Positions 1-61,318 are shown, counted from the first letter of the stretch. The stretch: DNA of 64,000 nucleotides from Alphaproteobacteria bacterium (GCA_017505705.1 JAFVOS010000010.1:2883-66882), one strand, 5' to 3'. Numbers and translations are program-made. Notes: generated from the letters alone by a model not told the origin.

Positions 1-3000
1 CGTCTGCAGGTGCAACAGTAAACCAGTATGCCCAATGGTATGCGAACAAATACACAATTGTGTATAACAGCAACAAGCCCAGTGCAGCAAGTGGAACAAT
101 TAGTGGCACAACTGCATCCAGTTCACATACGTATGATGTGATAAAGAGTTTGACAGATAATGGATATAAATTAACTGGTTGGACATTTGTGGGGTGGAAT
201 ACCAAGGCAGACGGTTCTGGAACCGCTTATGTAAATGGCGAATCTGTTGTTAATCTGGTGTCAGAAGATAATGGTAGCAAGACGTTGTATGCTCAATGGG
301 TCGCAAATACATTGACAATATATTTTAACAACGGCGGTGCAACAGGCAGTCCTACAAAGACCAGCATAACATGCAAGTATGATGCAGCGTGTTCTGCAAC
401 GACCCAGGGGGCAATGTTAAATACTAATCATACATTTGAAGGCTGGACAGATGTTGAAAATGGAACAACTGTTAAATACAACGCTGGCGCATCAATTAAA
501 AATATAATCAACAGCGGCAGCACGACATTGTATGCTGTGTGGTCTGGTTGTCCAAAAGCACAAGCAGGAACAGGTGTTGTAAAATCTGTGTTGGTTGGTG
601 TGACAGATAATGTTTGTCGCTATATACATACCTGCTCTGCTGGATTTTATAGCGCACGTCATTTGCAGAACATAACGGCCGCAACGATAACTTGTGCAGC
701 ATGTACAGATTTGCCTGATAATGCAAAGTGGACGGGTGCTGCAACAACAGATACGTGTGCATGGGAATGTGACGCCTGTGTTAAGGGGGCAAATGTAACA
801 TCGTGTGCTGTATCGAAAAACGAAAATGCCAGAACATGTACTTACACTGGTACGTGTAATGCAAACACATTTAAACCTGTGGCGAATAAATCAACAATCA
901 GTTGTACTGTATGTCCAGTTAACAGCTTTACAGAAGCAGATAACGTCAATACATATTGTACTTGTTCAATTGGACACAGCACCAACGGCAAGGTGACAGG
1001 ACCACAAACAACTGATTCAACCGTTTGTACGCCGATTACGGACTATAAGATAGACTATGTTATGAATGGTGGTACAAACTATATTGATGCACCTGGCGTC
1101 TACAAGTATGGTGTAGGGACAACGATTGATGGTGTGCCAGTGCGTACGGGATATACGTTTGCGGGTTGGTGTTCTGACAAGACGCTGAATTCATGTGCAA
1201 ATCAACATGTGATATCGGATTTTGCAACGGGGACACAAACTGTGTATGCAAAGTGGTCTGCAAACAGCTATAAGATTACATTTGATAGAAATGGCGGAAC
1301 CGGAGATATTCAAGAAAGTGTGATTTGTTCGTTTGACAGCGGTAATTGTGCAATGCCGGCTGTGACTTCGCTGGTGCGGGCAGGATATGTGGCAACAGGT
1401 AAATTATGCGAAAATTCAGATGGCAGTGGAAAATGCTATGATGCAAATGAAAATGTTGCAACAAATATTTCAGAAGATGCAACGGATACTAAATTGTATG
1501 TTATTTGGGAACCGGGGGTATTTAAGATTACATTATTGACACCAGAAGCGTCACGTAATGATGTTCAACCACCAGTGTATCTGAAATATACAGTTGGTTG
1601 GTATTCAGATGCAAACGCTGAAAATCCGCTGATAAATATGGACGAAACCAGATTGCCAGAAAGAGATGGTTATGTGTTTGATGGTTATAGAACAGCAGAT
1701 GGTGTAAAGATTGTTTCACCGGATGGTGTGATGCAAAAAACACAAGCTGAATTAACAGCTGTAACCGCTGATTCTGTGGCCACAGTTATGTGGCAGCCAG
1801 GTAAAACAGTGTGTCCAGCAGGATATTATTATCCTGGTCAGGGCGGAACATGTAATGTATGCGATGAAAATCATTGGTGCCCAGGTGGAACATTTGATAC
1901 CGATACCAAGGTTATTGGGGGACATAATTCATGTGCAGATGGCGGTGTGTCGTCTGGTGGTATATCTGCAACACATCCTGGGGTTTGTTATAAGAATTTG
2001 TTGCCATATACATCTGTGACAGGACTGGCAACAGGTACACAGACGTGCCACTATAATACAGAAAGCACTAAGTATGATTTGACTTGTTATAATTTTGCAG
2101 TCAGCACCTGTGCAGCAGGATATTACTTTGTATCTGGTAATGATTGTACAGAAGTTGGTCAGAATTACTATAGCGCAGAAGGCAGCATGTTAAAGAACCC
2201 CTGCCCTGAAGATGGTGTGACAGGTTCTTTAACAACGGCGAATTCCGCAACCCAGTGTTATAAAACAGTGGCGTATAGTTCAACATATGGTGCAGGTACC
2301 CAAGTTTGTAATTGGACAGATTATGATGTTGGATTTACAACAAACTGTCGCAGCAAGTTTATTGCAAGATGTGTCGGTGGATATTATCGTGCGACGCCAG
2401 ATGCAACAGATTGTGTGCCTGTGGGATATGGTGCATACAGTTTGATTAATAGTATTGATAAAATATTGTGTCCAGAAGACGGAAAAACTGATACGCAAAC
2501 TGCAGATGATGCGACGTTATGTTATCAACCAAACTATCCGTTTGTGACGGCACATGGCAGTGGTGTCAGATACTGTAATTTCAGCATATCGACCCAAGGT
2601 TATACGAACTGTCAAACCAATATGTTTACATCGTGCAATGATGGGTATTATTGGGCGAAACTGGGGGATGAAGATTGTGTGCCTGTGGGATATGGGTACT
2701 TTGGACCAGTGGCAGCAGATGACAATATGGGATATATGACAGGTCGTGATGCGTGCCCAGCGTTCTTGACGCGTCAGGGAATGACACAAACCGCAACCAG
2801 TGCAGATGCCAGTGCATGTTATATGACCAGAATATCGTGTAATGTGCCAAATGGTTCTGGTATTAAGCAATGTGGATACAACACGTCTACGGCTGATTAT
2901 ACGGCAAACTGTTCAGAATGTATGGTGACACTGTGTGAATCTAGATATTATTTGAATGACAACAAGTGCAACTTCTGTCCAGAAAATGAAATCTGTGATG

Positions 3001-4235
3001 AATTGTCACGCAAGGATTCTGATGAAAATGGTATGCCTGATGGAGAACCACTGATGTGTAAAGCAATGTTCAACAGTCGATATCCGTATGCTGATGCAGG
3101 TTCTATATTTGCGGGCCAATGTTGGGGCGTGTGTGACTTGTTGGAGAACGTTGTCAAAATGATAGGGCGTGATTACCAAGGAGATCCGATGGTTGACACT
3201 TGCGAAATTCAGATTTGTGAAGAACGTCACTATCTGACAGATGACAAGAGTGCTTGCTTAATCTGTCCAGAAAACTATATTTGTGGTCCAGAAACAACGT
3301 CTGATTTGGATGATGATGACATCCCAGATGCATCACCAAAATCATGTGCCGAAATTTCGGGTGGAACACACATATATGCCCCAGAAGGCTCTGTTGAATC
3401 ATCTCAATGTTATGCTAAGTGTGAAGGGTTTGATATCATCGGGGGACGTGCATATCCAAGAAAAGAAATCGTGTATTTTGGTTCAGATGTATGTGATTAT
3501 ATCGGAATGTCAGATACAGGAAACCCATGCCAGATTGAAGAAACACCAGATGGTTTGGCGTGCATAGAAGTGTCTTGTAATCCAGACTTCGAACTGATTG
3601 ATGGCAAATGTCAAAAGTGTGACAGACAGTATGCCACTGCGTATAAAGCAAATGGGAATTGCTTGGTAGCTAAGTGTAATGAAGGATATCATCCAGAAAG
3701 CGACCAGTGTATTGCAGATGAGCAAACATGTGATATGCCAAATGCAACCAAGGCTAAAAAAACGTGGAACCATAAATTGGGATCATATGGCATCTGCGAA
3801 ATTATAGAATGCGAAGAAGGATATCATGTTGCTTCTAATGCATGTGTACCAGATACGCAGTCATGCGAAATCAAAAACGGTACAGGTACACGCCAGTGGG
3901 ATACAGCAAAAAAAGCATGGGGTGAATGTGTTGTGACATCTTGTAAGCCTGGATACACAAATAATCCACGTGAATCAAATGAACCATTGGATGCATCTAA
4001 AAAATGTGGCGCATGTAGAAATACATTTGGTTTAAATGGTCAGGTTGCGGTCAGCACATGGATAAATGGCTGTGAAATTGGGGCATGCTTGTACCAGGGT
4101 GAATTGTATAACCTGGAAAATAATAAGTGTGTTGCAATTTGTAATCGTGCCCCAGATGAAACAGGTAGCATGCGTTGGGACGATGATGCGAAAAAGTGTA
4201 TACGTGAATGTAAACCAGGATACAAATCGTGGTAA
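1..4235 (+). CDS. Giant cysteine-rich surface/adhesin-like protein, 5'-truncated by the window edge
   Basis: The frame is open from nt 3 (SAGATVNQYAQWYANKYTIVYN...), so the N-terminus lies upstream. At least 5 units fit the ~80-aa pattern Y.I.Y..NGG.G...GY.F.GW...DGSG..Y....LYA.W (Listeria-Bacteroides/Flg_new type). From ~nt 1812 there are four ~88-aa Cys modules (C.GYY..DC..VG.G.Y...CPEDG.T...A..CY), then C.EGYH...C EGF-like units. Stop is at 4233-4235. Confidence 0.8.
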   Translation, partial: SAGATVNQYAQWYANKYTIVYNSNKPSAASGTISGTTASSSHTYDVIKSLTDNGYKLTGWTFVGWNTKADGSGTAYVNGESVVNLVSEDNGSKTLYAQWVANTLTIYFNNGGATGSPTKTSITCKYDAACSATTQGAMLNTNHTFEGWTDVENGTTVKYNAGASIKNIINSGSTTLYAVWSGCPKAQAGTGVVKSVLVGVTDNVCRYIHTCSAGFYSARHLQNITAATITCAACTDLPDNAKWTGAATTDTCAWECDACVKGANVTSCAVSKNENARTCTYTGTCNANTFKPVANKSTISCTVCPVNSFTEADNVNTYCTCSIGHSTNGKVTGPQTTDSTVCTPITDYKIDYVMNGGTNYIDAPGVYKYGVGTTIDGVPVRTGYTFAGWCSDKTLNSCANQHVISDFATGTQTVYAKWSANSYKITFDRNGGTGDIQESVICSFDSGNCAMPAVTSLVRAGYVATGKLCENSDGSGKCYDANENVATNISEDATDTKLYVIWEPGVFKITLLTPEASRNDVQPPVYLKYTVGWYSDANAENPLINMDETRLPERDGYVFDGYRTADGVKIVSPDGVMQKTQAELTAVTADSVATVMWQPGKTVCPAGYYYPGQGGTCNVCDENHWCPGGTFDTDTKVIGGHNSCADGGVSSGGISATHPGVCYKNLLPYTSVTGLATGTQTCHYNTESTKYDLTCYNFAVSTCAAGYYFVSGNDCTEVGQNYYSAEGSMLKNPCPEDGVTGSLTTANSATQCYKTVAYSSTYGAGTQVCNWTDYDVGFTTNCRSKFIARCVGGYYRATPDATDCVPVGYGAYSLINSIDKILCPEDGKTDTQTADDATLCYQPNYPFVTAHGSGVRYCNFSISTQGYTNCQTNMFTSCNDGYYWAKLGDEDCVPVGYGYFGPVAADDNMGYMTGRDACPAFLTRQGMTQTATSADASACYMTRISCNVPNGSGIKQCGYNTSTADYTANCSECMVTLCESRYYLNDNKCNFCPENEICDELSRKDSDENGMPDGEPLMCKAMFNSRYPYADAGSIFAGQCWGVCDLLENVVKMIGRDYQGDPMVDTCEIQICEERHYLTDDKSACLICPENYICGPETTSDLDDDDIPDASPKSCAEISGGTHIYAPEGSVESSQCYAKCEGFDIIGGRAYPRKEIVYFGSDVCDYIGMSDTGNPCQIEETPDGLACIEVSCNPDFELIDGKCQKCDRQYATAYKANGNCLVAKCNEGYHPESDQCIADEQTCDMPNATKAKKTWNHKLGSYGICEIIECEEGYHVASNACVPDTQSCEIKNGTGTRQWDTAKKAWGECVVTSCKPGYTNNPRESNEPLDASKKCGACRNTFGLNGQVAVSTWINGCEIGACLYQGELYNLENNKCVAICNRAPDETGSMRWDDDAKKCIRECKPGYKSW

Positions 4236-6678: not shown

Positions 6679-7809
6679 ATGGCAAAAGACAATAAAAACG
6701 AAAAGAAAAAGCAATCAACAGATTCTATGATTGACGAAGCAATTGCAAAGCAAAATGCATGGCTGGAAAACCGCAGAACATATACACGTGGCTTCTTAAA
6801 AAAACTGGATACGTTTGCACGCAAAAAAGATGAAAATCAATCTATTGACAAGAAAGAAATTGAACGTGCACGCAATCGCCGCAGTGTGATTGGTGCATAC
6901 TGGTTCCCTATTCTGTGTGCATTGGTCGTTATTTTTATTGCGATTTGGGTGGCGTTTGTACGTCAACCTGCCCCACAACGTGTTGTGGTTGTGCCAGCTG
7001 TTCCAGAACCTGTTGTGCAAGCAATAGATACAATGACAGCCCCAACATTCGATATTGTGCGTATTGAAAAAAATGGCAGCGTTGTTATTGCTGGGCGTTG
7101 GTTGCCACACCAAAACATCTCAATTGTTGTAAATGGCAAGATTGTTGCAACCGAACGCACAGATTCCGCCGGTGAATTTGTTTATGCGCCATCTAAGCCA
7201 TTTGCCGCCGGCAACTATACCATTTCATTAATGGGCACAGAACCAACCGTTAAATCCGAAGACAAAGTTTTTGTTTATGTGTCTGAAGCCGGGGCAGAAA
7301 ATTCTGTATCTTTGTTAATGACACGTGACGGCAGCACCCTGTTACAGGCCCCATCAATGTTGCGTGATGGCGATTTGTCTGTGTCCAAAATTGATTATCT
7401 GGATACAGGTCGTATTGTTGTGACAGGGGACGCATTGCCACGCCTGCGTGTGTCGTTATCACTGAACGATAAATATATGGGATTTGCACGTGTGTCAGAT
7501 CATCATCATTTTGGGCTGGGCGCAGATGTGGGCGAATTGGAAAGCGGCAAAGAATATTCACTGACCGTACGCATGCACGATGGAGATGGTCGCACCGTTG
7601 CCAGTGTCACACACGATTTTGTAATGCCAGAAATGACCGGCGATGATGACACATTTTATACTGTTCGTCGTGGGGATTGTTTGTGGATTATTGCACGCAA
7701 TTTCTTGCGTCGTGGTATTCTGTTTAGCATTATTGCAGAACGCAACAACATTGAAAACCCAGATCTGATTTATCCAAAACAATTGTTACAGATTCCAGTG
7801 GAAAAATAA
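6679..7809 (+). CDS. Membrane-anchored LysM peptidoglycan-binding protein
   Basis: Has one N-terminal TM helix (YWFPILCALVVIFIAIWVAFV) and a C-terminal LysM (YTVRRGDCLWIIARN...NPDLIYPKQLLQIP). Confidence 0.8.
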   Translation: MAKDNKNEKKKQSTDSMIDEAIAKQNAWLENRRTYTRGFLKKLDTFARKKDENQSIDKKEIERARNRRSVIGAYWFPILCALVVIFIAIWVAFVRQPAPQRVVVVPAVPEPVVQAIDTMTAPTFDIVRIEKNGSVVIAGRWLPHQNISIVVNGKIVATERTDSAGEFVYAPSKPFAAGNYTISLMGTEPTVKSEDKVFVYVSEAGAENSVSLLMTRDGSTLLQAPSMLRDGDLSVSKIDYLDTGRIVVTGDALPRLRVSLSLNDKYMGFARVSDHHHFGLGADVGELESGKEYSLTVRMHDGDGRTVASVTHDFVMPEMTGDDDTFYTVRRGDCLWIIARNFLRRGILFSIIAERNNIENPDLIYPKQLLQIPVEK

Positions 7810-8642
7810 TGGTTCGGCTAGACGTTACGCCACGTGTAAACTTGGCATTAAAAGTTACAAATTGGTGCAATTTGAATTGTGCCCATTGCTGTGAACGCAG
7901 TCACGCCAACGAACCATTTAATTTGATGCCAATTGATAAAATAGAACGCTATATTTGCGAATTCAAAGACATGGGTATACCTGTTTGGGACTATGTCACT
8001 TTTACAGGTGGCGAAACAATGGCACCATACTATATCGGTCATCATAAATACATTCCAACTGTAGCGGACATTTGTGCAAAAAACAATATGTCTGCATGTT
8101 TTAAGACAAATGCGTTGTGGGGTAATAAATTAATATTGTCTGGCAGCATTCTGAAATCACTGGCAGATATTGCACACAAACATGATCGCCAAATATCACT
8201 TGATATATCTATTGATGAATACCATGACAATATGAATGCGGCTGCCAATGTTGTTAATCAAATTATGAACAGTCAATATTTGTCTGCTGCGTTTCCTGTG
8301 TCTTTTGTCGGATTAAATACCCCTGCATCACAATATAAATATCAAGAATTTGCAAATATTCTTAGACAGCGTGGAATATATGTAGATCAAATGGATTCAG
8401 ATGGCAGTATCATTATGTCTAAAGGTAATAATCTGAACGTTATGTTTTATGAAATTGGCACATTGTCACGACTGGGGCGTGCAGCAGACAATGAATTAAC
8501 CCAGCATATACCAAATGGGTATACCGATTGCCTGATGATTACAAACGACGACCAGGTGATATTAAACCATAAACACAAAACCACAGTGGCCAATAAAACC
8601 ATTGGACAAGTCTATAATGAACTGATACAAAAAAAGAGATAA
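7809..8642 (+). CDS. Radical SAM domain protein
   Basis: CX3CX2C cluster motif CNLNCAHC at nt 7866-7889, followed by FTGGE. The start overlaps the LysM stop (TAATG). Confidence 0.75.
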   Translation: MVRLDVTPRVNLALKVTNWCNLNCAHCCERSHANEPFNLMPIDKIERYICEFKDMGIPVWDYVTFTGGETMAPYYIGHHKYIPTVADICAKNNMSACFKTNALWGNKLILSGSILKSLADIAHKHDRQISLDISIDEYHDNMNAAANVVNQIMNSQYLSAAFPVSFVGLNTPASQYKYQEFANILRQRGIYVDQMDSDGSIIMSKGNNLNVMFYEIGTLSRLGRAADNELTQHIPNGYTDCLMITNDDQVILNHKHKTTVANKTIGQVYNELIQKKR

Positions 8643-8647
8643 AAATT

Positions 8648-9274
8648 ATGGCATATAAAGATTTGGATTTACGTCGTCAACGTGGACGCGAAAGATATGC
8701 AAGAAATCGTGAAGCACGCAAACAGGCTGCACGTGAATACTATGCACGTAATGCAGATACGTTACGTGAAAAGAATCGTATTCGTGCATATGAAAGTCGT
8801 GAAAAATACAAAGATAAAATTCATGAATATCAGATAAAAAACAAAGATAAAATCAATGCAAGATGTCGTGCATATTATCAAGAGCACAAAGATGTAATAT
8901 TAGCGCAGGTGCGTCAACACCATGCCGAACACAGAGAAGAAATCCAGGCAATGCGCAATCAAGCAAAAGCAGAACTGCGCAACGCACGTGTTATGTGCCC
9001 TGCTTTTAAGTTTGTGGATAAAATACGTTTGGCAGATATAAAATTGTATACAAGCAAGTATCGACCATATTCCAACTTGCCGCATAAGGCTGCAAAAAAA
9101 TGCCAAGCGATTGTTATGGGCGATTATACACTGTGCCCAATTTGTAAAGATTGCACAATGTCTGACAAAAAGATGGAAGCGGTCTGTCCAATGCCACACG
9201 TGTTTGAATTTGAAAATGCTGTTGCCACAATCCGCGAACGAGCCGCCGATATTGTAATGGCAAACCAAAAATAA
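8648..9274 (+). CDS. Hypothetical basic protein with ~15-aa periodic R/K..YY..N/H repeats and a C-terminal Cys cluster
   Basis: The ORF starts 5 nt after the previous stop. Repeats include RERYARNREA, AREYYARNADTL, RCRAYYQEHKDVI. The C-terminus carries CPAF...CQAI...CPICKDC...CPMPH. Confidence 0.55.
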   Translation: MAYKDLDLRRQRGRERYARNREARKQAAREYYARNADTLREKNRIRAYESREKYKDKIHEYQIKNKDKINARCRAYYQEHKDVILAQVRQHHAEHREEIQAMRNQAKAELRNARVMCPAFKFVDKIRLADIKLYTSKYRPYSNLPHKAAKKCQAIVMGDYTLCPICKDCTMSDKKMEAVCPMPHVFEFENAVATIRERAADIVMANQK

Positions 9275-9278
9275 AAGG

Positions 9279-11021
9279 ATGCAAAAAATGTCAATGGCAA
9301 AACGCTTGTATAAAATTGCGTATGACCACGATGAATTGGTTCAGCGTACATCGCCCGAAGCCTTTACGCCATACAATATGTTAGGTGTTGATGCGGAACA
9401 ATACAATGCCCTGCCCGAACGGGAAAAGACCACGTTAAAATGGTTGGTGCGCGCGTCTGATATTATTGATCGTGTGGCATTACAAATGGACCATCCTTAT
9501 AATTTAGATTTTGAACTGTTTCTAGAATCGCGCCAATCTTTTAAAGATATAAAATTAACGCAGAAATTATTTCGTGGGCAACGTGGTATTTTTGCGACGG
9601 AAAAATCTGGAGCGCCGGTTGCGTTAACCAATGATGTTGAACCGCGTTTGGGGCGTGGTCTGTATCCGTATAATTTGTCCGTTGATGAATTTCACGACAT
9701 TTTAATTCATATGTTGGAAAGCGGATATAAAGATGAAGAGGTACGTGAAATATTAAATCAACGCACCATTGTAAAGCGTTTTGGCGATGAATTGAAAGCT
9801 GTTGATTATACAAATGCGTTCAAATTTGATTTTCGTTCGGCTGCATATGCATTACAGGCCGCCGCTATAAGCACGGAAAATTTCGATTTCAAAGAATATT
9901 TGACACTGCAATCCGCAGCATTGATGAATTACTGGCCATGGGCTGATTGTGAAGCGGATAAGAAATGGGCAACATTGCAATCGGGACCGCTGGAATTTAC
10001 ACTGGGGCGAGAATGTTATGATGACGCGATGACGCCAACGGTATTACAAAACCCAAAATTAAAATCTATGTTGGATGCGCGTGGAATCATACCATATGCC
10101 AAAGATAATCTGGGGGCGACGGTCGGTATTGTCGATACGGCCGGCACGGATTATTTGTTAAAAATAAAACAGCATTTACCAATGATGGCATCCAAGATGC
10201 CACGTGCAGACGAATATAAACAGGTCCTGGGGACAAACACCAAACAAACAATGGTCGATGTCGATGTTGTATCGGTCAGTGGGCACAATGCCGCGTATCG
10301 CAGTCAGATAACGTTGGCATTTAATCTGCCAAATGCAGATAAGATGGCGGTTCAAACCGGTGGCGGTCATCGGACAGTATATTTAAAACAAATGCGCCAG
10401 TGCAAATATGGCAATGGAATAGACGAAAAGAAAAATGCTTTACTGGCGCCGGAATTTCATAAATATTTTTCGGTTCGTGCCCTGCACGACTTTACAATTT
10501 TGCACGAAAATATGCATACATTGGGACCAAAAGACGGCCTGGATGCACTGGGTGAATATAAAAATATTATTGAAGAGCACAAGGCCGATGCGGGCTCTAT
10601 TGCGATGTTGGATGAACTGGTTCGAGCGGGATTTTTTACGCCACATCAAAAACAAGAACTGATTACGTCATGGCTGATTGCGTATTTATATCCGGGTGCA
10701 AATTTCAGTCGCGCCCATGCGAAGCGCAATATTATGCAACATAATATGTTATTTGAGTGTGGCGCAATTCGTCTGGATTCATCAAATCGTTTAGTCATAG
10801 ATTTTGATGCGGTTGTCGCACGTGGTAAAAAAATGTTGCGCGATGTGATTGATATTCAGTTATCAAAAAATCCAGAAATGGCACGTCAGTATATTGAAAA
10901 ATATGCAGTATGGTCGCCACAACTGGGAATGCTGGGGACGAAATTAGCCAACGTTGATAAACAGCGTAATTCTTATATCGTAGAACCATTGGCGGATATG
11001 TTACGCGGACGTCAGAAATAA
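9279..11021 (+). CDS. Zn-metallopeptidase/hydrolase, DPP-III-like (M49-related)
   Basis: HENMH(TLGP) at nt 10503-10517 and EEHKAD at 10573-10590. These resemble the HExxH...EExKAD pair of DPP III-like proteins. Confidence 0.55.
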   Translation: MQKMSMAKRLYKIAYDHDELVQRTSPEAFTPYNMLGVDAEQYNALPEREKTTLKWLVRASDIIDRVALQMDHPYNLDFELFLESRQSFKDIKLTQKLFRGQRGIFATEKSGAPVALTNDVEPRLGRGLYPYNLSVDEFHDILIHMLESGYKDEEVREILNQRTIVKRFGDELKAVDYTNAFKFDFRSAAYALQAAAISTENFDFKEYLTLQSAALMNYWPWADCEADKKWATLQSGPLEFTLGRECYDDAMTPTVLQNPKLKSMLDARGIIPYAKDNLGATVGIVDTAGTDYLLKIKQHLPMMASKMPRADEYKQVLGTNTKQTMVDVDVVSVSGHNAAYRSQITLAFNLPNADKMAVQTGGGHRTVYLKQMRQCKYGNGIDEKKNALLAPEFHKYFSVRALHDFTILHENMHTLGPKDGLDALGEYKNIIEEHKADAGSIAMLDELVRAGFFTPHQKQELITSWLIAYLYPGANFSRAHAKRNIMQHNMLFECGAIRLDSSNRLVIDFDAVVARGKKMLRDVIDIQLSKNPEMARQYIEKYAVWSPQLGMLGTKLANVDKQRNSYIVEPLADMLRGRQK

Positions 11022-15807: not shown

Positions 15808-16332
15808 TTATCTTGCAAACTGGCGTGGGGTGGCCAGAAATGGATTTTGCAACAATACAGGCTTATAACCTGTTTGTTCAACGCATACGTTTATGCAATT
15901 TGCATGATTGGCAAAATCATAATCTTGGATATGAATATGTCCATGAATGTTTGCAATTGGTGATGTGTCGCCAAATTCTGGCAGTGGTTCATGCGATAAC
16001 ATGATATATTGTTCTGCAATATAGACGGGATGCAAAAAAACCTTGTCAAAGCCACAGTCACGCCACCACGTTTCCGAATGACCACGATCATGATTGCCAA
16101 GAATTAAATATTTGCGCCCATTCATTTGATGTAAAATTTTGTAAACTTTCTCTTTTGTCGCACCATACATAACATCGCCCAGCCAATAACAAACATCTTG
16201 TTTTTGAACGACGGAATTATAATTCTTAATCAGTGTTTGGTTCATGTGTGCAATATTGTTAAACGGGCGCTGGCCGTTAACAATTATTTTTTCGGAATCA
16301 AAGTGTGGGTCGGAATATACATATGTCGCCAT
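15808..16332 (-). CDS. Metallophosphoesterase (calcineurin-like, small phage/AQ1575-like type)
   Basis: SDPHF, WLGDV, ILGNHD and HGHIH metal-ligand motifs in canonical order. Confidence 0.8.
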   Translation of the reverse strand: MATYVYSDPHFDSEKIIVNGQRPFNNIAHMNQTLIKNYNSVVQKQDVCYWLGDVMYGATKEKVYKILHQMNGRKYLILGNHDRGHSETWWRDCGFDKVFLHPVYIAEQYIMLSHEPLPEFGDTSPIANIHGHIHIQDYDFANHANCINVCVEQTGYKPVLLQNPFLATPRQFAR

Positions 16333-16334
16333 AA

Positions 16335-17273
16335 CTATTTACCCCCATGAATATTATTAATGTTTTGATTGATTGTCTGCAGCATACGCACAATATCAGC
16401 CCATGTTTCACGTGGTGCATTAAATGCCTCGGATGCAGTATGATAATCATCTGCCAAACGATACAGTGTGCTGTCATCAGGCAATAACACAATTTCTGAT
16501 GGTGATTTAACAGGCGTAATTTCTTTGGTTGTGTACTTTGCTTGATACGCTTCTATGTTGTGGAACAGTGGATACGTTTCTGATAAATCTACAAACGGTG
16601 CCAATGTTGCAACATCATAATAGTGGCGTGAAAATCCGTCATCAAAATGTGGAATACGGGCGTTGGCATTAGAATGCAGTGCATAGACTTTGTCCCAAAA
16701 AGTTTGCTGATATGCCACCGTCGGTACAGTCCCCATTGGAACCAATGTTGAATACGGCACAACAGAACGTACGGAAATTATACTGTCTGGGTATTTGCGT
16801 GGGATAATTTCAATACACAGATGTCCCATGTCTGTGCCAAAATGCGAACGATACAGCAAATGTAGTGTTGGCGATGATAAAAAGTGCTCTTTATTTTCCA
16901 GGGCATTCCAATCACGATCTGTGACAATCATAAATCTGGAATCTTGGTTGATGATATTGTTTATTGCCGGCTTTAACACATCAAAAACATAGTTTTTAAA
17001 ATTCTTGCGAAATGTGTTCAGCTTCTTTTTTGAATGCATATCTGGAATATCTGTGAAATCACTGCATGCTAAATCTATATCCTGGCCGATGCGGTTGCTG
17101 ATATTATATGATTTGGTAACGGATGCACCACCAGCAAAAACAAAATTTTTGTTTATATATTCATTTTGAAATAACTTTTCCAGTATTGCACATTCCAAAT
17201 AGTCCTTTTCAGCCATTTTTGGATTGTTTGTACGTGCAAACTCTAAAAACTTTTCTGGTTGTATTTTTATCAT
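16335..17273 (-). CDS. AbiEii/DUF1814-like nucleotidyltransferase
   Basis: EKDYLECAILEKL, FAGGASVTKSYNISNRIGQDIDL, and a later DKVYALHS...RHYYDVATL. The ATG at 17273 is preferred over the TTG at 17297. Confidence 0.6.
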   Translation of the reverse strand: MIKIQPEKFLEFARTNNPKMAEKDYLECAILEKLFQNEYINKNFVFAGGASVTKSYNISNRIGQDIDLACSDFTDIPDMHSKKKLNTFRKNFKNYVFDVLKPAINNIINQDSRFMIVTDRDWNALENKEHFLSSPTLHLLYRSHFGTDMGHLCIEIIPRKYPDSIISVRSVVPYSTLVPMGTVPTVAYQQTFWDKVYALHSNANARIPHFDDGFSRHYYDVATLAPFVDLSETYPLFHNIEAYQAKYTTKEITPVKSPSEIVLLPDDSTLYRLADDYHTASEAFNAPRETWADIVRMLQTINQNINNIHGGK

Positions 17274-17367
17274 CTTGACATATATTATTGCACACAATTG
17301 TCTTTTGTCAACTTTTATTTAAATATAGAATTTGACTTTAGTGGACACGAGGACTAATATTAAAAGC

Positions 17368-57999: not shown

Positions 58000-58075
58000 G
58001 GGGTTGTAGCTCAGTTGGTAGAGCACTTGCATGGCATGCAAGGGGTCGTCGGTTCGAGTCCGATCAGCTCCACCA
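58000..58075 (+). tRNA. tRNA-Ala (anticodon GGC), CCA encoded
   Basis: GGGGTTG acceptor stem with G3:U70, anticodon arm CTTGC-ATGGCAT-GCAAG, T-arm GTCGG-TTCGAGT-CCGAT. Confidence 0.92.
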
Positions 58076-58076
58076 G

Positions 58077-58152
58077 GAATCTGTGGTTCTGGTTGGGACA
58101 CTTGATGACATGCAACACGCACTCGTCGGTTCGAGTCCGATCAGCTCCACCA
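58077..58152 (+). pseudogene. Degenerate tandem copy of tRNA-Ala (perfect 3' 31 nt, decayed 5' two-thirds)
   Basis: 58123-58153 is identical to 58046-58076. The upstream part keeps only CACTTG..CATGCAA. The acceptor and anticodon stems no longer pair. Confidence 0.7.
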
Positions 58153-58166
58153 GAAAAATTCAGTAT

Positions 58167-58244
58167 GGCGGATATAGCTCAGTTGGTTAGAGCGTTGGTT
58201 TGTGGTACCAAATGTCGCCGGTTCGAGTCCGGTTATCCGCCCCA
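58167..58244 (+). tRNA. tRNA-His (anticodon GUG) with encoded G-1 and CCA
   Basis: G-1 plus GCGGATA acceptor stem, anticodon arm TTGGT-TTGTGGT-ACCAA, T-arm GCCGG-TTCGAGT-CCGGT, discriminator C. Confidence 0.92.
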
Positions 58245-58280
58245 TTATAAAAAGGCACCCCGACGGGGTGTTTTTTATTG
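58239..58280. repeat. Direct repeat copy A (tRNA-His 3' end plus terminator hairpin)
   Basis: gccccattataaaaaggcaccccga (58239-58263) is identical to 60698-60722. The hairpin cacccc-gac-ggggtg plus T-run also acts as the tRNA terminator. Confidence 0.9.
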
Positions 58281-58306
58281 ATTTTCTGTACATTTTATGA
58301 TACAAT
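58278..58306 (+). promoter_or_regulatory. Candidate sigma70 promoter of the MuF-lysozyme gene
   Basis: TTGATT (58278-58283), 17 nt, TACAAT (58301-58306). Confidence 0.45.
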
Positions 58307-58320
58307 ACACATATTCAGCA

Positions 58321-58370
58321 GACGACATTTTGTCGTCTTTTTTATTGCCCGCATTTGCGGGTGTTTTTTT
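58321..58370 (+). terminator. Two tandem terminator-like hairpins in the leader of the MuF-lysozyme gene
   Basis: gacgac-atttt-gtcgtc plus T7 (58321-58344), and cccgc-attt-gcggg-tgttttttt (58348-58370). The GGAG RBS and the ATG at 58384 follow directly. Confidence 0.6.
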
Positions 58371-58383
58371 ATGGAGAAAAGAA

Positions 58384-59577
58384 ATGCAAATACCAAAATT
58401 TTTACAAGAACTGATATCATCGCCCGAATATGGCGATAAAAACAGCGAAACTTATAAACGTGCAACAAGGTATATGAACATCTTGTACCCTGGCACAGTG
58501 GCGTTTGATGCCACAGGTCGTATGATGCGCCCAGAATATGATATGACATTGGAACAGTTCTACAAAGCCCAGCATGAAATAGAAACGGAGTTCGAGTCCG
58601 ATAAAAGTGAGGCAGAAGCAGATGTCCTGGATGCATACGGCGATTATTTTGAAACAATTGGTTTTAATTTTAATATTGAAGAATATGTCGTTTCTGGCAC
58701 GCCAATACCGGTCAAAGTCCTGATGCCGGGTGGCCATGTATCAAAGCGCAGTCTGGAAACTTATGCTTTGAATATTCCAGACTTTGAAATAAAGCCCAAG
58801 ATATGGATATGGCACAGCGAGCATGGCGAAAACACATGCGACGACTGCTTGGGGAATGATGGGACGGTCTATGAAAACAAAGAAGATATACCAGATATCC
58901 CCGTTCATCCAAACTGTCGATGCTGGGTTGAAGAAATAGAGCTGGACAAAAACGGCAAGAAAATAGGCAGCAAGGTTTACAAAGGTCAAAAGCCAGAAAC
59001 ACAAAAGGTAAGTGATATGAAAAATATATTAACTGATAAGTTTAAGAATGATGTGATGGCGCACGAAGGAATCAGAAAAAGTCCATACACAGATTCCAAA
59101 GGTTATTTAACAATTGGAATTGGCAAAAACATACATAAACTAAATGATTTTTTAAAGTTAGATATTATAAATACAAACACTGGTACGGAATTAACCGAAG
59201 CCGAAAAACAAAATATTCATTCAAAAATGGTATCAGAAATAAATAATGGTACTTTTAGAGAATATGATTATGCACACATACAAATATCGCCAAATCAAAT
59301 TTATAACCAGTTTAACCAACAACTGGAAATTGCATACAATGAATTAAACAAAAAAATAATGAATTTTATAGATATGCCGATATCTGTACAGCAAGCGTTG
59401 TTAGATATGCAATTTAATATGGGAAACAACAGGTTTTCTGAACGGTATTGGCCAAAGTTATTTGAAGCCATCAAAAATAAAGATTGGGAAACCGCCGCAA
59501 AGGAAGCGTCTGAAAGGAAAGATGTACAAAAGGCCCGTCGTGAATGGACAAAGCTAATGTTTCTAAATGCAAACTAA
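58384..59577 (+). CDS. MuF (SPP1 gp7 / Mu F-like) head-protein domain fused to a T4-type (GH24) lysozyme domain
   Basis: The MuF hallmark is IWHSEHGENTCDDCLGNDG....PVHPNCRCWVEE. The lysozyme catalytic spacing is HEGIRKSPYTDSKGYLTIGIGKN (E-x8-D-x5-T). The start was moved to the ATG after the hairpins. Confidence 0.7.
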   Translation: MQIPKFLQELISSPEYGDKNSETYKRATRYMNILYPGTVAFDATGRMMRPEYDMTLEQFYKAQHEIETEFESDKSEAEADVLDAYGDYFETIGFNFNIEEYVVSGTPIPVKVLMPGGHVSKRSLETYALNIPDFEIKPKIWIWHSEHGENTCDDCLGNDGTVYENKEDIPDIPVHPNCRCWVEEIELDKNGKKIGSKVYKGQKPETQKVSDMKNILTDKFKNDVMAHEGIRKSPYTDSKGYLTIGIGKNIHKLNDFLKLDIINTNTGTELTEAEKQNIHSKMVSEINNGTFREYDYAHIQISPNQIYNQFNQQLEIAYNELNKKIMNFIDMPISVQQALLDMQFNMGNNRFSERYWPKLFEAIKNKDWETAAKEASERKDVQKARREWTKLMFLNAN

Positions 59578-60512
59578 CGATAGAATATTTCGTGCAAAAT
59601 CAGGGTGGATGCGGTCATTTTAGCATATTTGACCGCATCTTGTTCTGACATATGTAATGCATCAGTATAGTATTTTTTGATATTGTCTGCCATTGCATCA
59701 TATATCAAAACCAGGTCTTCATATTTAGCCAGTTCTGATAATAAATCTTTTGCATAAAAAAACTTTTTTTCTTCAAAATTAAGTTTTATGAATAAGTCAT
59801 CGTGTGTTTTGCCCTGAAAAAAAGAAGTTGGGTAAGTCAGCATCCCTATCATATCATGATAATTTGATGTGCTTAATGCGAAACTTATTGTGCCATTGAT
59901 CGGTGGTTCTTGGTTTATTTTTGACAACGCATCAAAACTTGGGGATTGAACAAAACGCCTTATCTGTGTTATCTCATACGGATTAAACGGTTTGCAAATG
60001 CCCGCAATCGCAGCATCACGTGAACTGCCGAAATAGTCCTCTATCAATTCAAGTGCGTTTTCATTTTCTTTTATCATATCTATATAAACACAAGGCAAAG
60101 TCATGTGAAATAAATGTTTGGCATCATCAAAATTCTTAAAATATTCCGGCCAAGAAACCTCGTCTTTGAAATATTCAAAATAACAAAAATTATCATATGT
60201 ACCATGCGCACCATTGCAATCTGCGGCCATTATCTGCATTGCGTTGTGAATCAGTTGATTGGCATATTCAATGTCTTGGTATTCATTGTCTGACAAATAG
60301 ATATAAGCCAGATACAACATAGAATCTGTGTGTTTTTTATCATTTGCATCCAAGGTCGCTAAACATGCTTTGTATATATCAATCGCTTCCTGCTTTTTTG
60401 ACCAATCAAGGGAATAAATATCGCCACATACAGTGTGGTTGGTCTTTTTGGGTATATCATAATTACATCCCAGCAGACATAACAGACAAAGTGTTTTGAA
60501 AAACTTCTTCAT
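59574..60512 (-). CDS. Hypothetical lipoprotein, convergent with the MuF-lysozyme gene
   Basis: The ATG at 60512 gives MKKFFKTLCLLCLLGC lipobox. The stop codons of the two genes overlap. No family recognised. Confidence 0.55.
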   Translation of the reverse strand: MKKFFKTLCLLCLLGCNYDIPKKTNHTVCGDIYSLDWSKKQEAIDIYKACLATLDANDKKHTDSMLYLAYIYLSDNEYQDIEYANQLIHNAMQIMAADCNGAHGTYDNFCYFEYFKDEVSWPEYFKNFDDAKHLFHMTLPCVYIDMIKENENALELIEDYFGSSRDAAIAGICKPFNPYEITQIRRFVQSPSFDALSKINQEPPINGTISFALSTSNYHDMIGMLTYPTSFFQGKTHDDLFIKLNFEEKKFFYAKDLLSELAKYEDLVLIYDAMADNIKKYYTDALHMSEQDAVKYAKMTASTLILHEIFYR

Positions 60513-60697
60513 ACTTAAAATCTTATTTAGATTTATATTGTCTGTCAATGACATTATATACAGGTCATGTTGAATCAATCAGGAACGTTACACAACTTAC
60601 TGGTATGATTTTTTATTTCCGATAACACCTCGTTCAACAACGGGCACAAATCAAGCAATTGTTGTATATTTTCGGTTCGAGGTGTTTCAAATTCGGG

Positions 60698-60740
60698 GCC
60701 CCATTATAAAAAGGCACCCCGAAAGGGGCGTTTTTTGTTG
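60698..60740. repeat. Direct repeat copy B (degenerate tRNA-His 3' end plus terminator-like hairpin)
   Basis: 25-nt perfect match to 58239-58263. Upstream, cggttcgag also matches the tRNA-His T-arm. Downstream, ggggcgttttttgttg resembles ggggtgttttttattg. Confidence 0.9.
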
Positions 60741-60784
60741 CAAACCTATAGATTGTTTGTATACTGACGCAAAAAAGGTTAGAA

Positions 60785-61285
60785 ATGTCAGATATTCCGA
60801 ATACAGAATATATTACAATAAACAAGAATGGGATTTTTGTCAGTGGCAGGTCGGCAACAGCATATCGTGGTGCAGTCATAGGTTTCCCAGAATCTATACA
60901 GAAAAATTTTCAAAATCTTCAAAAACACTATCCAAACATTCAAGAAATGCGTTTTTTGACATCTAAAACAACGGGGGAATACTATAAAGCTGGAAATCCT
61001 GTCGATGAAAAGGGTGATAATCTTTGGGCATGCGTGGCTTTTAATGATGGTTATGTTGCACCATGGGTTCTGGTTTCTATTAATTATACACATGATTTCT
61101 ATATTCATCATAGAGTTGCAGGTTGCATGTCTAATATAGCAAATAACTATACATTTTTGCATGATTTGTTGGGGCGCTATCAAGATGTCACAGTCAGATT
61201 AAACCTGCAAAATATGGCGGGGCGCTCGTTTGAATTAAATGGCTTCAGATTGACGGTTGAAAAAATTACACAAAAAACAAAATAA
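60785..61285 (+). CDS. Hypothetical protein
   Basis: 166-aa ORF with an AAGG RBS, followed by a terminator sharing 17 nt with repeat copy A. Confidence 0.5.
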   Translation: MSDIPNTEYITINKNGIFVSGRSATAYRGAVIGFPESIQKNFQNLQKHYPNIQEMRFLTSKTTGEYYKAGNPVDEKGDNLWACVAFNDGYVAPWVLVSINYTHDFYIHHRVAGCMSNIANNYTFLHDLLGRYQDVTVRLNLQNMAGRSFELNGFRLTVEKITQKTK

Positions 61286-61289
61286 AACG

Positions 61290-61318
61290 ACACCCCCATC
61301 GGGGTGTTTTTTATTGCA
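61290..61318 (+). terminator. Intrinsic terminator, third copy of the cggggtgttttttattg motif
   Basis: caccccc-at-cggggtg plus T-run. 61300-61316 is identical to 58264-58280. Confidence 0.75.

Follow-up and report, generated by a model that had tools for sequence, protein, structure and literature searches.

MuF polymorphic toxins with adjacent immunity genes have been described in prophage head-morphogenesis modules, mostly of Firmicutes and Bacteroidales, and their payloads act in the cytoplasm: nucleases, ADP-ribosyltransferases, (p)ppApp synthetases, deaminases and peptidases (PMC5576092, PMC11699363). In a word search of PMC5576092, lysozyme and peptidoglycan do not occur. Here we describe a locus beside tRNA-His in a 64,000-nucleotide (nt) stretch of alphaproteobacterial DNA (GCA_017505705.1, JAFVOS010000010.1:2883-66882; hereafter the window), in which a gene for a MuF-like domain fused to a T4-type lysozyme domain converges on a lipoprotein gene (Table 1). 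That this is a toxin-immunity cassette is well supported, which its delivery is not. The reading taken as a whole, i.e. a cassette of a polymorphic family on a MuF-like (phage minor-head-protein) carrier, with the delivery and control proposed below, appears to us reasonably probable.

The locus resembles the described MuF toxins (Jamet et al. 2017, PMC5576092; Apk2 and Bxa, PMC11699363) in its MuF-type N-terminus with variable toxin C-termini, in the cognate small gene directly after the toxin gene, and in the shuffling of C-termini among related N-termini. It differs from them in its setting, its genes being solitary neighbours of tRNA genes, in alphaproteobacterial genomes of <1 Mb, and not part of a prophage head module; in that all of its payloads target peptidoglycan and its partners are exported or membrane-bound, where the known toxins are cytoplasmic; and in a MuF match that covers part of the model and stays under the Pfam cut-off. 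Neither the window open reading frames (ORFs) checked nor the flanks of the 57 loci compared showed any head genes, the portal gene included. Because the head-module context fails and the MuF domain score is only partly reached, sequence comparison indicates that the locus works like the MuF polymorphic toxin family without being a plain member of it.

Exchangeable C-termini and their cognate partners

A search of 5.8 billion proteins returned 210 relatives, and 57 loci (numbered below with the prefix L) were collected from a set with one genome per species, a few genomes giving two loci. In all, the family was traced through 61 related loci of Enterousia-like gut bacteria. The named relatives are all uncultured gut Alphaproteobacteria (Candidatus Enterousia), except for a few labelled only Proteobacteria. 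In the homologues from the protein search the first ~207 residues are 80-98% identical, and the C-termini match PF00959, PF05838, or PF10908 together with PF03734. The C-termini fall into four clusters: Tlde1/YkuD-like domains, classical GH24 lysozymes, divergent GH24 lysozymes (the window type), and GH108 with a peptidoglycan-binding domain. Across these clusters the N-termini share 45-94% identity. Each cluster has its own downstream partner families, which comprise lipoproteins, signal-peptide proteins and small polytopic membrane proteins. Downstream arrays also contain orphan C-termini, which keep only carrier residues ~171-207, i.e. the last ~35. These exchangeable C-termini on a conserved N-terminus support the original prediction of a MuF carrier with a C-terminal payload, and they indicate that the locus is a member of a polymorphic toxin family. 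The same prediction had called the gene an orphan; the 57 loci show a conserved locus type instead.

The left break point of the exchange is the sequence gatATGaaa (59014-59022), whose in-frame ATG (59017-59019, M212) is preceded by aaagg and lies within the domain junction at 59000-59022. Together these resemble the ribosome-binding site (RBS) and start codon of free-standing lysozyme cassettes, and the lysozyme domain might be translated separately from M212. Much of this recalls the arrays of orphan C-terminal (CT) modules known as CdiA-CT and Rhs-CT, with which the family shares a conserved N-terminus, a sharp break point, recent horizontal spread of C-terminus and immunity gene, and displaced orphan modules that keep a short conserved stretch. 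The carrier and the presumed delivery differ, however, as does the coincidence here of the break point with the apparent RBS and start codon of a free-standing cassette.

The set of payloads also bears on a different route of delivery, in which the protein would be an effector of contact-dependent secretion such as type VI and the MuF-like part a recombination handle or adaptor. Tlde1, GH24 and GH108 domains are typical periplasmic effectors, and the payload/immunity pairs resemble type VI pairs. However, Pfam gave only lysozyme, MuF and pesticin matches for the fusion protein, with no PAAR, VgrG, Hcp, MIX or other marker domain, and none of the families that the scan of flanking proteins reported is such a marker. 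We regard a type VI effector as highly improbable, and consider the domains below as parts of a polymorphic toxin on a phage-derived carrier.

The MuF-like carrier

The family alignment of the carrier has five invariant residues, C152, C155, H175, C178 and C180, which form a CxxC...HPNCRC motif. Pfam PF04233 (Phage_Mu_F) matches the fusion with an E-value of 5e-5 and 24.4 bits, under the gathering score of 29.6, and the match is confined to model positions 60-111, the C-terminal half; TIGR01641 matches at 7e-4, likewise under its cut-off. PHROG families of minor head and head morphogenesis proteins match the carrier at 4.7e-9 to 7.6e-7, the minor head protein of cyanophage PSS2 is 27% identical to it (E 3e-6), and precomputed PF04233 matches are present on many homologues. 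Of the predicted union of a MuF hallmark with a T4-type lysozyme, the lysozyme is thus above its gathering score (see below) and the MuF part only below, though the PHROG and PSS2 matches agree with it. No relative of the carrier profile was found in the PDB, and the structure search with the whole fusion was uninformative on the carrier fold because the lysozyme half dominated the matches.

A second, shorter carrier family, which has the CxxC...HPxCxC motif in common with the first, was also observed (MSDIW..., CGGECGGC...HPHCGC, then a peptidoglycan-binding domain; P0036, P0038, P0040-P0053; L036:12688-13428). Its members bear the window-type lysozyme (92-98% identity) or a Tlde1 domain, and by this comparison payloads are common to two N-terminal families.

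The lysozyme payload

The C-terminal domain matches Pfam PF00959 (Phage_lysozyme) with an E-value of 3.7e-9 and 37.4 bits, above the gathering score of 22.3. The catalytic spacing E-x8-D-x5-T that had been read from the sequence corresponds to E228, D237 and T243, and this triad is invariant in 40 homologues. With an AlphaFold2 model of the fusion (predicted local distance difference test, pLDDT, 83), Foldseek gave a probability of 1.0 to T4 gp5, pesticin and T4 lysozyme, and target-normalised template modelling (TM) scores of 0.55-0.69 for free lysozymes.

The best PDB match is the cell-puncturing lysozyme of T4 gp5, and PHROG and BLAST searches also matched internal virion and tail-associated lysozymes. 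Such matches are what would be seen if the protein were a particle-associated hydrolase that opens the wall for DNA entry, as do T4 gp5 and T7 gp16, i.e. an accessory of a phage or gene transfer agent (GTA) whose neighbour gene only prevents self-damage. The payload set, however, includes Tlde1/YkuD-type domains, which are not lytic entry enzymes, and strict covariation of payload and partner, orphan arrays and recent spread between species are hallmarks of antagonistic toxin-immunity systems. We consider an entry function improbable.

Pesticin stands third among the PDB matches, is listed again among those from BFVD, and is weakly matched in Pfam. Like the pesticin/Pim system of Yersinia pestis, the locus combines a T4-type muramidase on a non-enzymatic N-terminal delivery part with a periplasmic target and a periplasmic immunity partner, the last being predicted here. 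The N-terminus of pesticin, however, is a TonB-dependent receptor-binding and translocation domain and its gene is plasmid-borne, where that of the present locus is MuF-like, and the lipoprotein, as compared with Pim, matched no family in the libraries searched. The main rival to a particle-delivered toxin is a bacteriocin that, like pesticin or colicin M, is released from the cell. In that case a few expressing cells would release the protein by lysis or leakage, the MuF-derived N-terminus would serve receptor binding and import, the lipoprotein would act like Pim, and no particle would be involved. Payloads that act in the periplasm and exported partner proteins would fit this. On the other side, the N-terminus matches phage head-protein profiles rather than translocation domains, the TM-score to full-length pesticin is ~0.3, with the lysozyme half carrying the match, and the cassette has no evident gene for lysis or release. 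We hold a bacteriocin of this kind to be unlikely; further evidence that bears on it is given with the leader and with the search for particle genes.

The lipoprotein partner

The lipoprotein has a lipobox (LLGC) whose Cys16 is nearly invariant in its family, here called F17. Only 24 clusters of this family were found in the 5.8 billion proteins, all from this clade. An F17 lipoprotein follows the window-type C-terminus in nine of nine loci, always convergent and abutting, and members of only 37-39% identity again abut a lysozyme-domain gene in four of the five contexts examined. The protein is a putative periplasmic immunity protein for the window-type lysozyme, judging from this linkage.

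No match to the lipoprotein was found in Pfam, PHROG or NCBIfam. The structure prediction that had been proposed for it gave a confident all-alpha model (pLDDT 85, predicted TM-score 0.81) but no structural match to known inhibitors: in the PDB the best hits, to TPR proteins, had an E-value of 0.077 and a TM-score of about 0.2. Given the lack of a PDB match, the lipoprotein, if it is an immunity protein, would belong to a new family. The proposal of an inhibitor or immunity protein therefore stands as regards its behaviour as a cognate partner, convergent and abutting down to 37% identity, but not as regards likeness to known lysozyme inhibitors.

The ~190-nt right-end module behind the lipoprotein gene is kept at 86-92% in seven genomes (L012, L014, L018, L021, L022, L024 and L061). 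It is also present in cassettes with other payloads, and the leader of the next cassette often follows directly after it.

Recent transfer and selection

The window was compared with five species that have the same payload, and the carrier across 11 relatives. Nucleotide identity is 96.9-98.8% in the lysozyme domain and 92-97% in the lipoprotein gene, against 80-93% in the carrier and 76-86% in the core genes frr and uppS. Synonymous divergence (dS) shows the same contrast, with values, from one set of genome pairs, of 0.03-0.15 in the lysozyme domain and 0.44-0.76 in the carrier. Payload and partner have therefore spread recently between species as a pair, and by this measure it is the lysozyme domain together with the lipoprotein that moved of late, and not the islet as bounded by the repeats. 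Comparison of the loci shows that the payload domain and the next gene, here a T4-type lysozyme and a lipoprotein, are exchanged together by recombination at the carrier 3' end (gatATGaaa) on one side and at the conserved right-end module on the other.

Base composition is also divided within the islet. The MuF half has a GC content of 0.424, near the background of 0.411, and the moved parts have 0.31-0.35 compared with 0.42; a low-GC tract (0.31-0.36) runs from the domain junction near 59005 past the right repeat and through 60785-61285 to about 61300. The islet had been described as AT-rich by eye. This is true of its lysozyme and lipoprotein part, but the MuF half is at genomic GC and the tract is not bounded by the repeats.

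The ratio of nonsynonymous to synonymous substitution rates (dN/dS) is 0.06-0.30 over carrier, lysozyme domain and lipoprotein (0.08-0.19 for the carrier, 0.11-0.23 for the lipoprotein), and all three parts are under purifying selection.

Linkage to tRNA genes

Integrase-less elements flanked by attachment (att) sites at tRNA genes are known as cis-mobilizable elements (CIMEs). The locus is like them in being a small insert between a tRNA 3' end and its copy, with no recombinase and with tandem junctions that suggest accretion. It differs in that closely related cassettes stand at six tRNA species, that no trans-acting integrase is known for the clade, and that the repeat in the window covers only 6 nt of the tRNA, its 3' end, the other 19 nt being the left (5') half of the tRNA-His terminator, a hairpin whose full extent is 58250-58276.

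This perfect 25-nt direct repeat, GCCCCATTATAAAAAGGCACCCCGA, occurs exactly twice in the window, with no further copy at up to three mismatches (<=3), for which a shuffled sequence gives 0 expected matches. A decayed tRNA-His T-loop, cggttcgag, lies 5' of the right repeat at 60674-60682, and a second terminator hairpin after it reaches to about 60737. The repeat, the T-arm remnant, the similar hairpin, the two genes enclosed and the overlap of their convergent stops were all as the original prediction had given them, except that the T-arm remnant is shifted by one base.

A co-oriented tRNA gene lies within 650 nt (<=650 nt) of the cassette in 32 of the 45 non-redundant loci with enough upstream sequence, compared with a rough chance expectation of about 2%. 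The six tRNA species are those for His, Lys and Glu and three for Ser; one site-specific integrase would not explain six such targets. At three tRNAs the cassette lies between repeats derived from the tRNA 3' end. Besides tRNA-His in the window, these are tRNA-Ser(TGA) in L034, where the toxin gene and its partner, and no other gene, lie between the copies of a perfect 32-nt repeat that extends from T-arm to CCA, and tRNA-Glu in L010, where a decayed T-arm, 3' end and terminator mark the far side of a toxin gene and its three partners. In L022 the sequence past the right pseudo-tRNA end matches the sequence after the tRNA-His end repeat in L001, as would be expected from insertion between the tRNA and its former flank. 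An empty site was also sought at tRNA-Ser(CGA), by comparison of the window with L031, L033 and L039, but there the tRNA gene is inverted relative to its neighbour, which makes the comparison unusable.

The relatives were also compared in search of an empty tRNA-His site, and no truly empty one was found among them. In L001, L002 and L017 tRNA-His is followed by a homologue of window positions 60718-61316 with the cassette just beyond, i.e. the order is permuted and the cassette is still present, and it is not absent. For the predicted attL/attR reading, then, the same geometry at tRNA-Ser(TGA) and tRNA-Glu and the conserved right-end module speak in favour, and the lack of an integrase in the flanks against. 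An origin of the att-like repeat in insertion is supported by these sequence comparisons, and the cassette would first have reached the tRNA by site-specific or short-homology recombination with an enzyme encoded elsewhere.

The repeats might alternatively be an old attL/attR pair, and the genes the decaying cargo of an inert prophage relic at tRNA-His. The tRNA 3'-end repeats, a decayed tRNA-Ala copy that shows past integrations, and the failure to find an integrase or phage genes nearby are all in keeping with a relic. Yet the reading frames are intact with the low dN/dS given above, the locus type is kept in the 57 loci from different species, and promoter and leader are conserved. The compact architecture of two to four genes recurs at three tRNAs, which independent deletions would not reproduce. 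A relic, one of the options of the original prediction, is rejected because all parts are under purifying selection, and we find it scarcely credible beside a maintained toxin-immunity cassette.

A separate observation at several tRNAs is a conserved, structured element of ~110-140 nt, preceded by a terminator, that separates the tRNA from an exact copy, 19 nt long, of its 3' end (L001:3538-3713, L010:9641-9821, L022:9019-9195, L048:9388-9580, L038:9449-9626, L051:9543-9723, and two copies in L060:3045-3401). The tRNAs concerned are those for His, Glu and Arg(TCT) and three for Ser, and the window is without the element. RNAalifold predicts covarying pairs between its 5' part and the tRNA-specific acceptor strand. 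The element belongs to no Rfam family; Rfam gave only tRNAs at the loci that carry it and in the window region. Repeats of the 3' end are present at 17 of 57 tRNAs with a toxin cassette versus 2 of 30 (p = 0.014).

A conserved promoter and terminator leader

Lambda Q and GafZ bind between the -35 and -10 elements of their promoters and carry RNA polymerase through terminators (PMC11150451). In every locus of the present family the same order is found: the tRNA terminator, a near-consensus promoter of the form TTGAnn-17-TGnTATAAT, about a dozen bases, two hairpins and the RBS. The -35, spacer and -10 are conserved in all related loci, whichever tRNA is present. Across 42 aligned loci 91.5% of cells agree with hairpin pairing, a share that falls to 31-65% once the partners are shifted out of register, and compensatory changes are present in hairpin 1; these pairs were counted on a structure that we specified, because RNAalifold recovered only hairpin 2 on account of indels. 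The window leader has z = -3.65. A covariance model of the leader, R1, scores 115 bits at 58276-58392 and has a single copy in the window, and Rfam gave only sub-threshold chance matches to the leader.

Further R1 copies in other loci lie upstream of a gene family called F45, of stand-alone lysozymes and of a tail-fibre-like gene (Mtd_N). By analogy with the lambda Q target PR'-tR' and with Caulobacter GafZ (PMC11150451), we infer that the toxin gene is controlled by antitermination, jointly with other genes of phage origin. The likeness consists in a strong sigma-70 promoter, terminators before the coding region, a conserved -35/-10 spacer, and the same leader at dispersed phage-derived genes; the differences are that no antiterminator gene was found and no pause element is defined here, and that termination and read-through are predictions. 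A leader common to tail-fibre-like and MuF-containing genes also speaks against a released bacteriocin.

The F45 protein (201 aa; L011:2165-2770, L020:12335-12940, L025:9161-9766 and L037:13275-13880 on the minus strand) has a virion-protein-type domain followed by a C-terminal full MuF domain (Pfam 8e-11), the reverse of the order in the toxin. Its virion-type domain occurs in 285 IMG/VR contigs and in PHROG families annotated as endolysin and tape measure. The tail-fibre-like protein (~190 aa, Pfam Mtd_N, a phage tail-fibre N-terminal domain, 7e-11; L016:15879-16445 and L007:3666-4259, both minus strand, L188:10001-10579 and L189:10001-10582) is encoded by a syntenic core gene of the clade, between the gene for a ~800-aa protein and acetate kinase, and is also found on an 887-kb contig. 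The promoter and two-terminator design precedes it in L007, L009, L011, L016 and L062, and the 846-aa protein upstream had no Pfam, PHROG or phage match.

A scan of metagenomes for the promoter pattern gave mostly chance matches in AT-rich DNA, and only L147, L071 and L106 exceeded 40 bits with the leader model. At L147:369-1340 a leader-like element (65 bits) stands before a 283-aa ORF flanked by glycosyltransferase-like genes; this ORF has weak hints of a T7 tail-fibre N-terminal and a gp53-like C-terminal domain (E 0.01-0.04).

Proposed delivery

In the reading that we favour, the gene would normally be silent, its strong promoter being followed by two intrinsic terminators, and would be read through only when an antiterminator is loaded at the promoter, as with lambda Q or GafZ. 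In such cells a phage-like particle, with its genes elsewhere, would receive the toxin in its head by way of the MuF carrier and eject it into neighbouring cells. The lysozyme would act in the periplasm of the target cell, and the lipoprotein would guard the wall of the producer. Homology of the carrier argues for packaging into a phage-like head.

Several results weigh against this. The MuF assignment consists of sub-threshold or partial profile matches, the carrier profile is not significantly similar to that of SPP1 gp7 (E 0.13), and neither the carrier, used both as a single sequence and as a profile, nor the window-type lysozyme was found among the 2.9 million viral contigs of IMG/VR. The putative immunity role of the lipoprotein is drawn from gene linkage, and in the Pfam, PHROG, NCBIfam and PDB searches the protein was unlike Ivy, MliC/PliC, PliG, Spackle, type VI immunity proteins and Pim. 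No candidate antiterminator gene was identified. As the original prediction had it, no integrase is present: there is none within the two-gene islet or the other window ORFs checked, nor in about 1 Mb of locus flanks, where a motif search and a PHROG scan of 148 pooled proteins gave only XerC/D-like recombinases about 8 kb away. Particle genes were sought in the window and in locus flanks of up to 10 kb. Capsid, portal and terminase were absent from the window ORFs checked, where other phage structural genes had rightly been said to be missing, and from the 25 most-hit of the 142 families matched in the PHROG scan. Genomes of the Enterousia-like clade are below 1 Mb (<1 Mb; PMC12306168), so there is not much space in them for a cluster of particle genes. 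The small genomes, and the failure to find particle genes in the window ORFs, the flanks and IMG/VR, would also suit a released bacteriocin. No literature on phages or GTAs of Enterousia was found.

A bolder form of the particle reading, to which we give a low probability, is that a delivery machine of phage origin has been domesticated in Enterousia-like bacteria, with its genes dispersed around the chromosome under one antitermination "late" leader. MuF cassettes would supply its head with exchangeable wall toxins, to be injected into competitors or host cells, and would home to many tRNA 3' ends without an integrase of their own. The ~110-140-nt element, with its pairing to the acceptor strand, may have a part in this homing.

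Layout of the locus and neighbouring genes

The features of the locus are collected in Table 1. A longer ORF start at 58297 was considered for the fusion gene and is spurious, because the ORF would cross the leader hairpins and homologues begin with MQxPKFLQ. The genes that flank the locus are the housekeeping genes frr, uppS, cdsA and rpsD, together with tRNA genes.

Table 1. Features of the cassette and its surroundings, in window coordinates (aa, amino acids)
Feature	Position	Strand	Remarks
tRNA-Ala	58000-58075		ARAGORN and Rfam
Decayed partial tRNA-Ala copy	58076-58153	+	anticodon arm to 3' end
tRNA-His (GTG)	58168-58244	+	left anchor of the cassette; ARAGORN; Rfam tRNA 69 bits
Left repeat copy	58239-58263	+	25-nt exact match search
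Sigma-70-type promoter	58278-58306	+	TTGATT-17-TACAAT, extended -10 TG
Leader	58320-58370	+	two tandem terminator-like hairpins (58320-58338, 58346-58363), each followed by a T-run
MuF-like::lysozyme fusion gene	58384-59577	+	397 aa
MuF-like N-terminal carrier	58384-59004	+	aa 1-207
Divergent GH24 (T4-type) lysozyme domain	59005-59577	+	aa 208-397, exchangeable payload
Lipoprotein gene	59574-60512	-	312 aa
Right-end module	60513-60700		~190 nt; lipoprotein promoter plus decayed tRNA-His T-loop and 3' end
Lipoprotein promoter	60548-60520	-	TTGACA-17-TAAGAT
Right repeat copy	60698-60722	+	25-nt exact match search
ORF F48	60785-61285	+	166 aa; promoter 60738-60765, terminator 61289-61308

The last 30 nt of the decayed tRNA-Ala copy equal the true tRNA-Ala 3' end (an 18-nt probe with a 12-nt exact leftward extension), and relatives have one or two tandem ~80-nt copies of this partial tRNA-Ala. 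From its sequence the copy looks like a scar of one or more old integrations at the anticodon-loop position, beside the locus.

The F48 ORF has a low GC content (0.357) and no match in Pfam, PHROG or NCBIfam. Homologues among the fetched loci are confined to L001, L002 and L017, where F48 stands between tRNA-His and the MuF cassette, a permuted order relative to the window. F48 may represent a second cassette that shares the site with the first.

Elsewhere in the window, positions 6679-11021 beside tRNA-Gly(CCC) and positions 15808-17297 may be other accessory islands. They encode a LysM protein, a radical SAM protein, two proteins without a family match and, further along, an AbiEii-type toxin and a metallophosphoesterase. 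A 1391-aa protein with Listeria-Bacteroides repeat domains, encoded at 60-4235, is probably a surface protein.

Implications

MuF toxins are the least understood of the polymorphic toxins: their role and delivery are unproven, and the described cases are prophage genes with cytoplasmic targets. What sets the present family apart is its unexpected host and genomic context, payloads that are all directed at peptidoglycan, a common leader, and unexplained targeting of tRNA ends. A chromosomal branch with wall toxins only and exported immunity proteins would be a cleaner test of whether a phage head protein carries a toxin into a cell, because a periplasmic target needs ejection across the outer membrane only. 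Further members of the regulon might be traced through the common promoter and two-terminator leader, and the precise 19-nt duplications of tRNA ends point to an integration mechanism that is perhaps not yet described. For the organisms themselves, an uncultured, genome-reduced gut lineage invests in several such cassettes and trades them across species, which bears on how the lineage competes with, or lives off, other cells.

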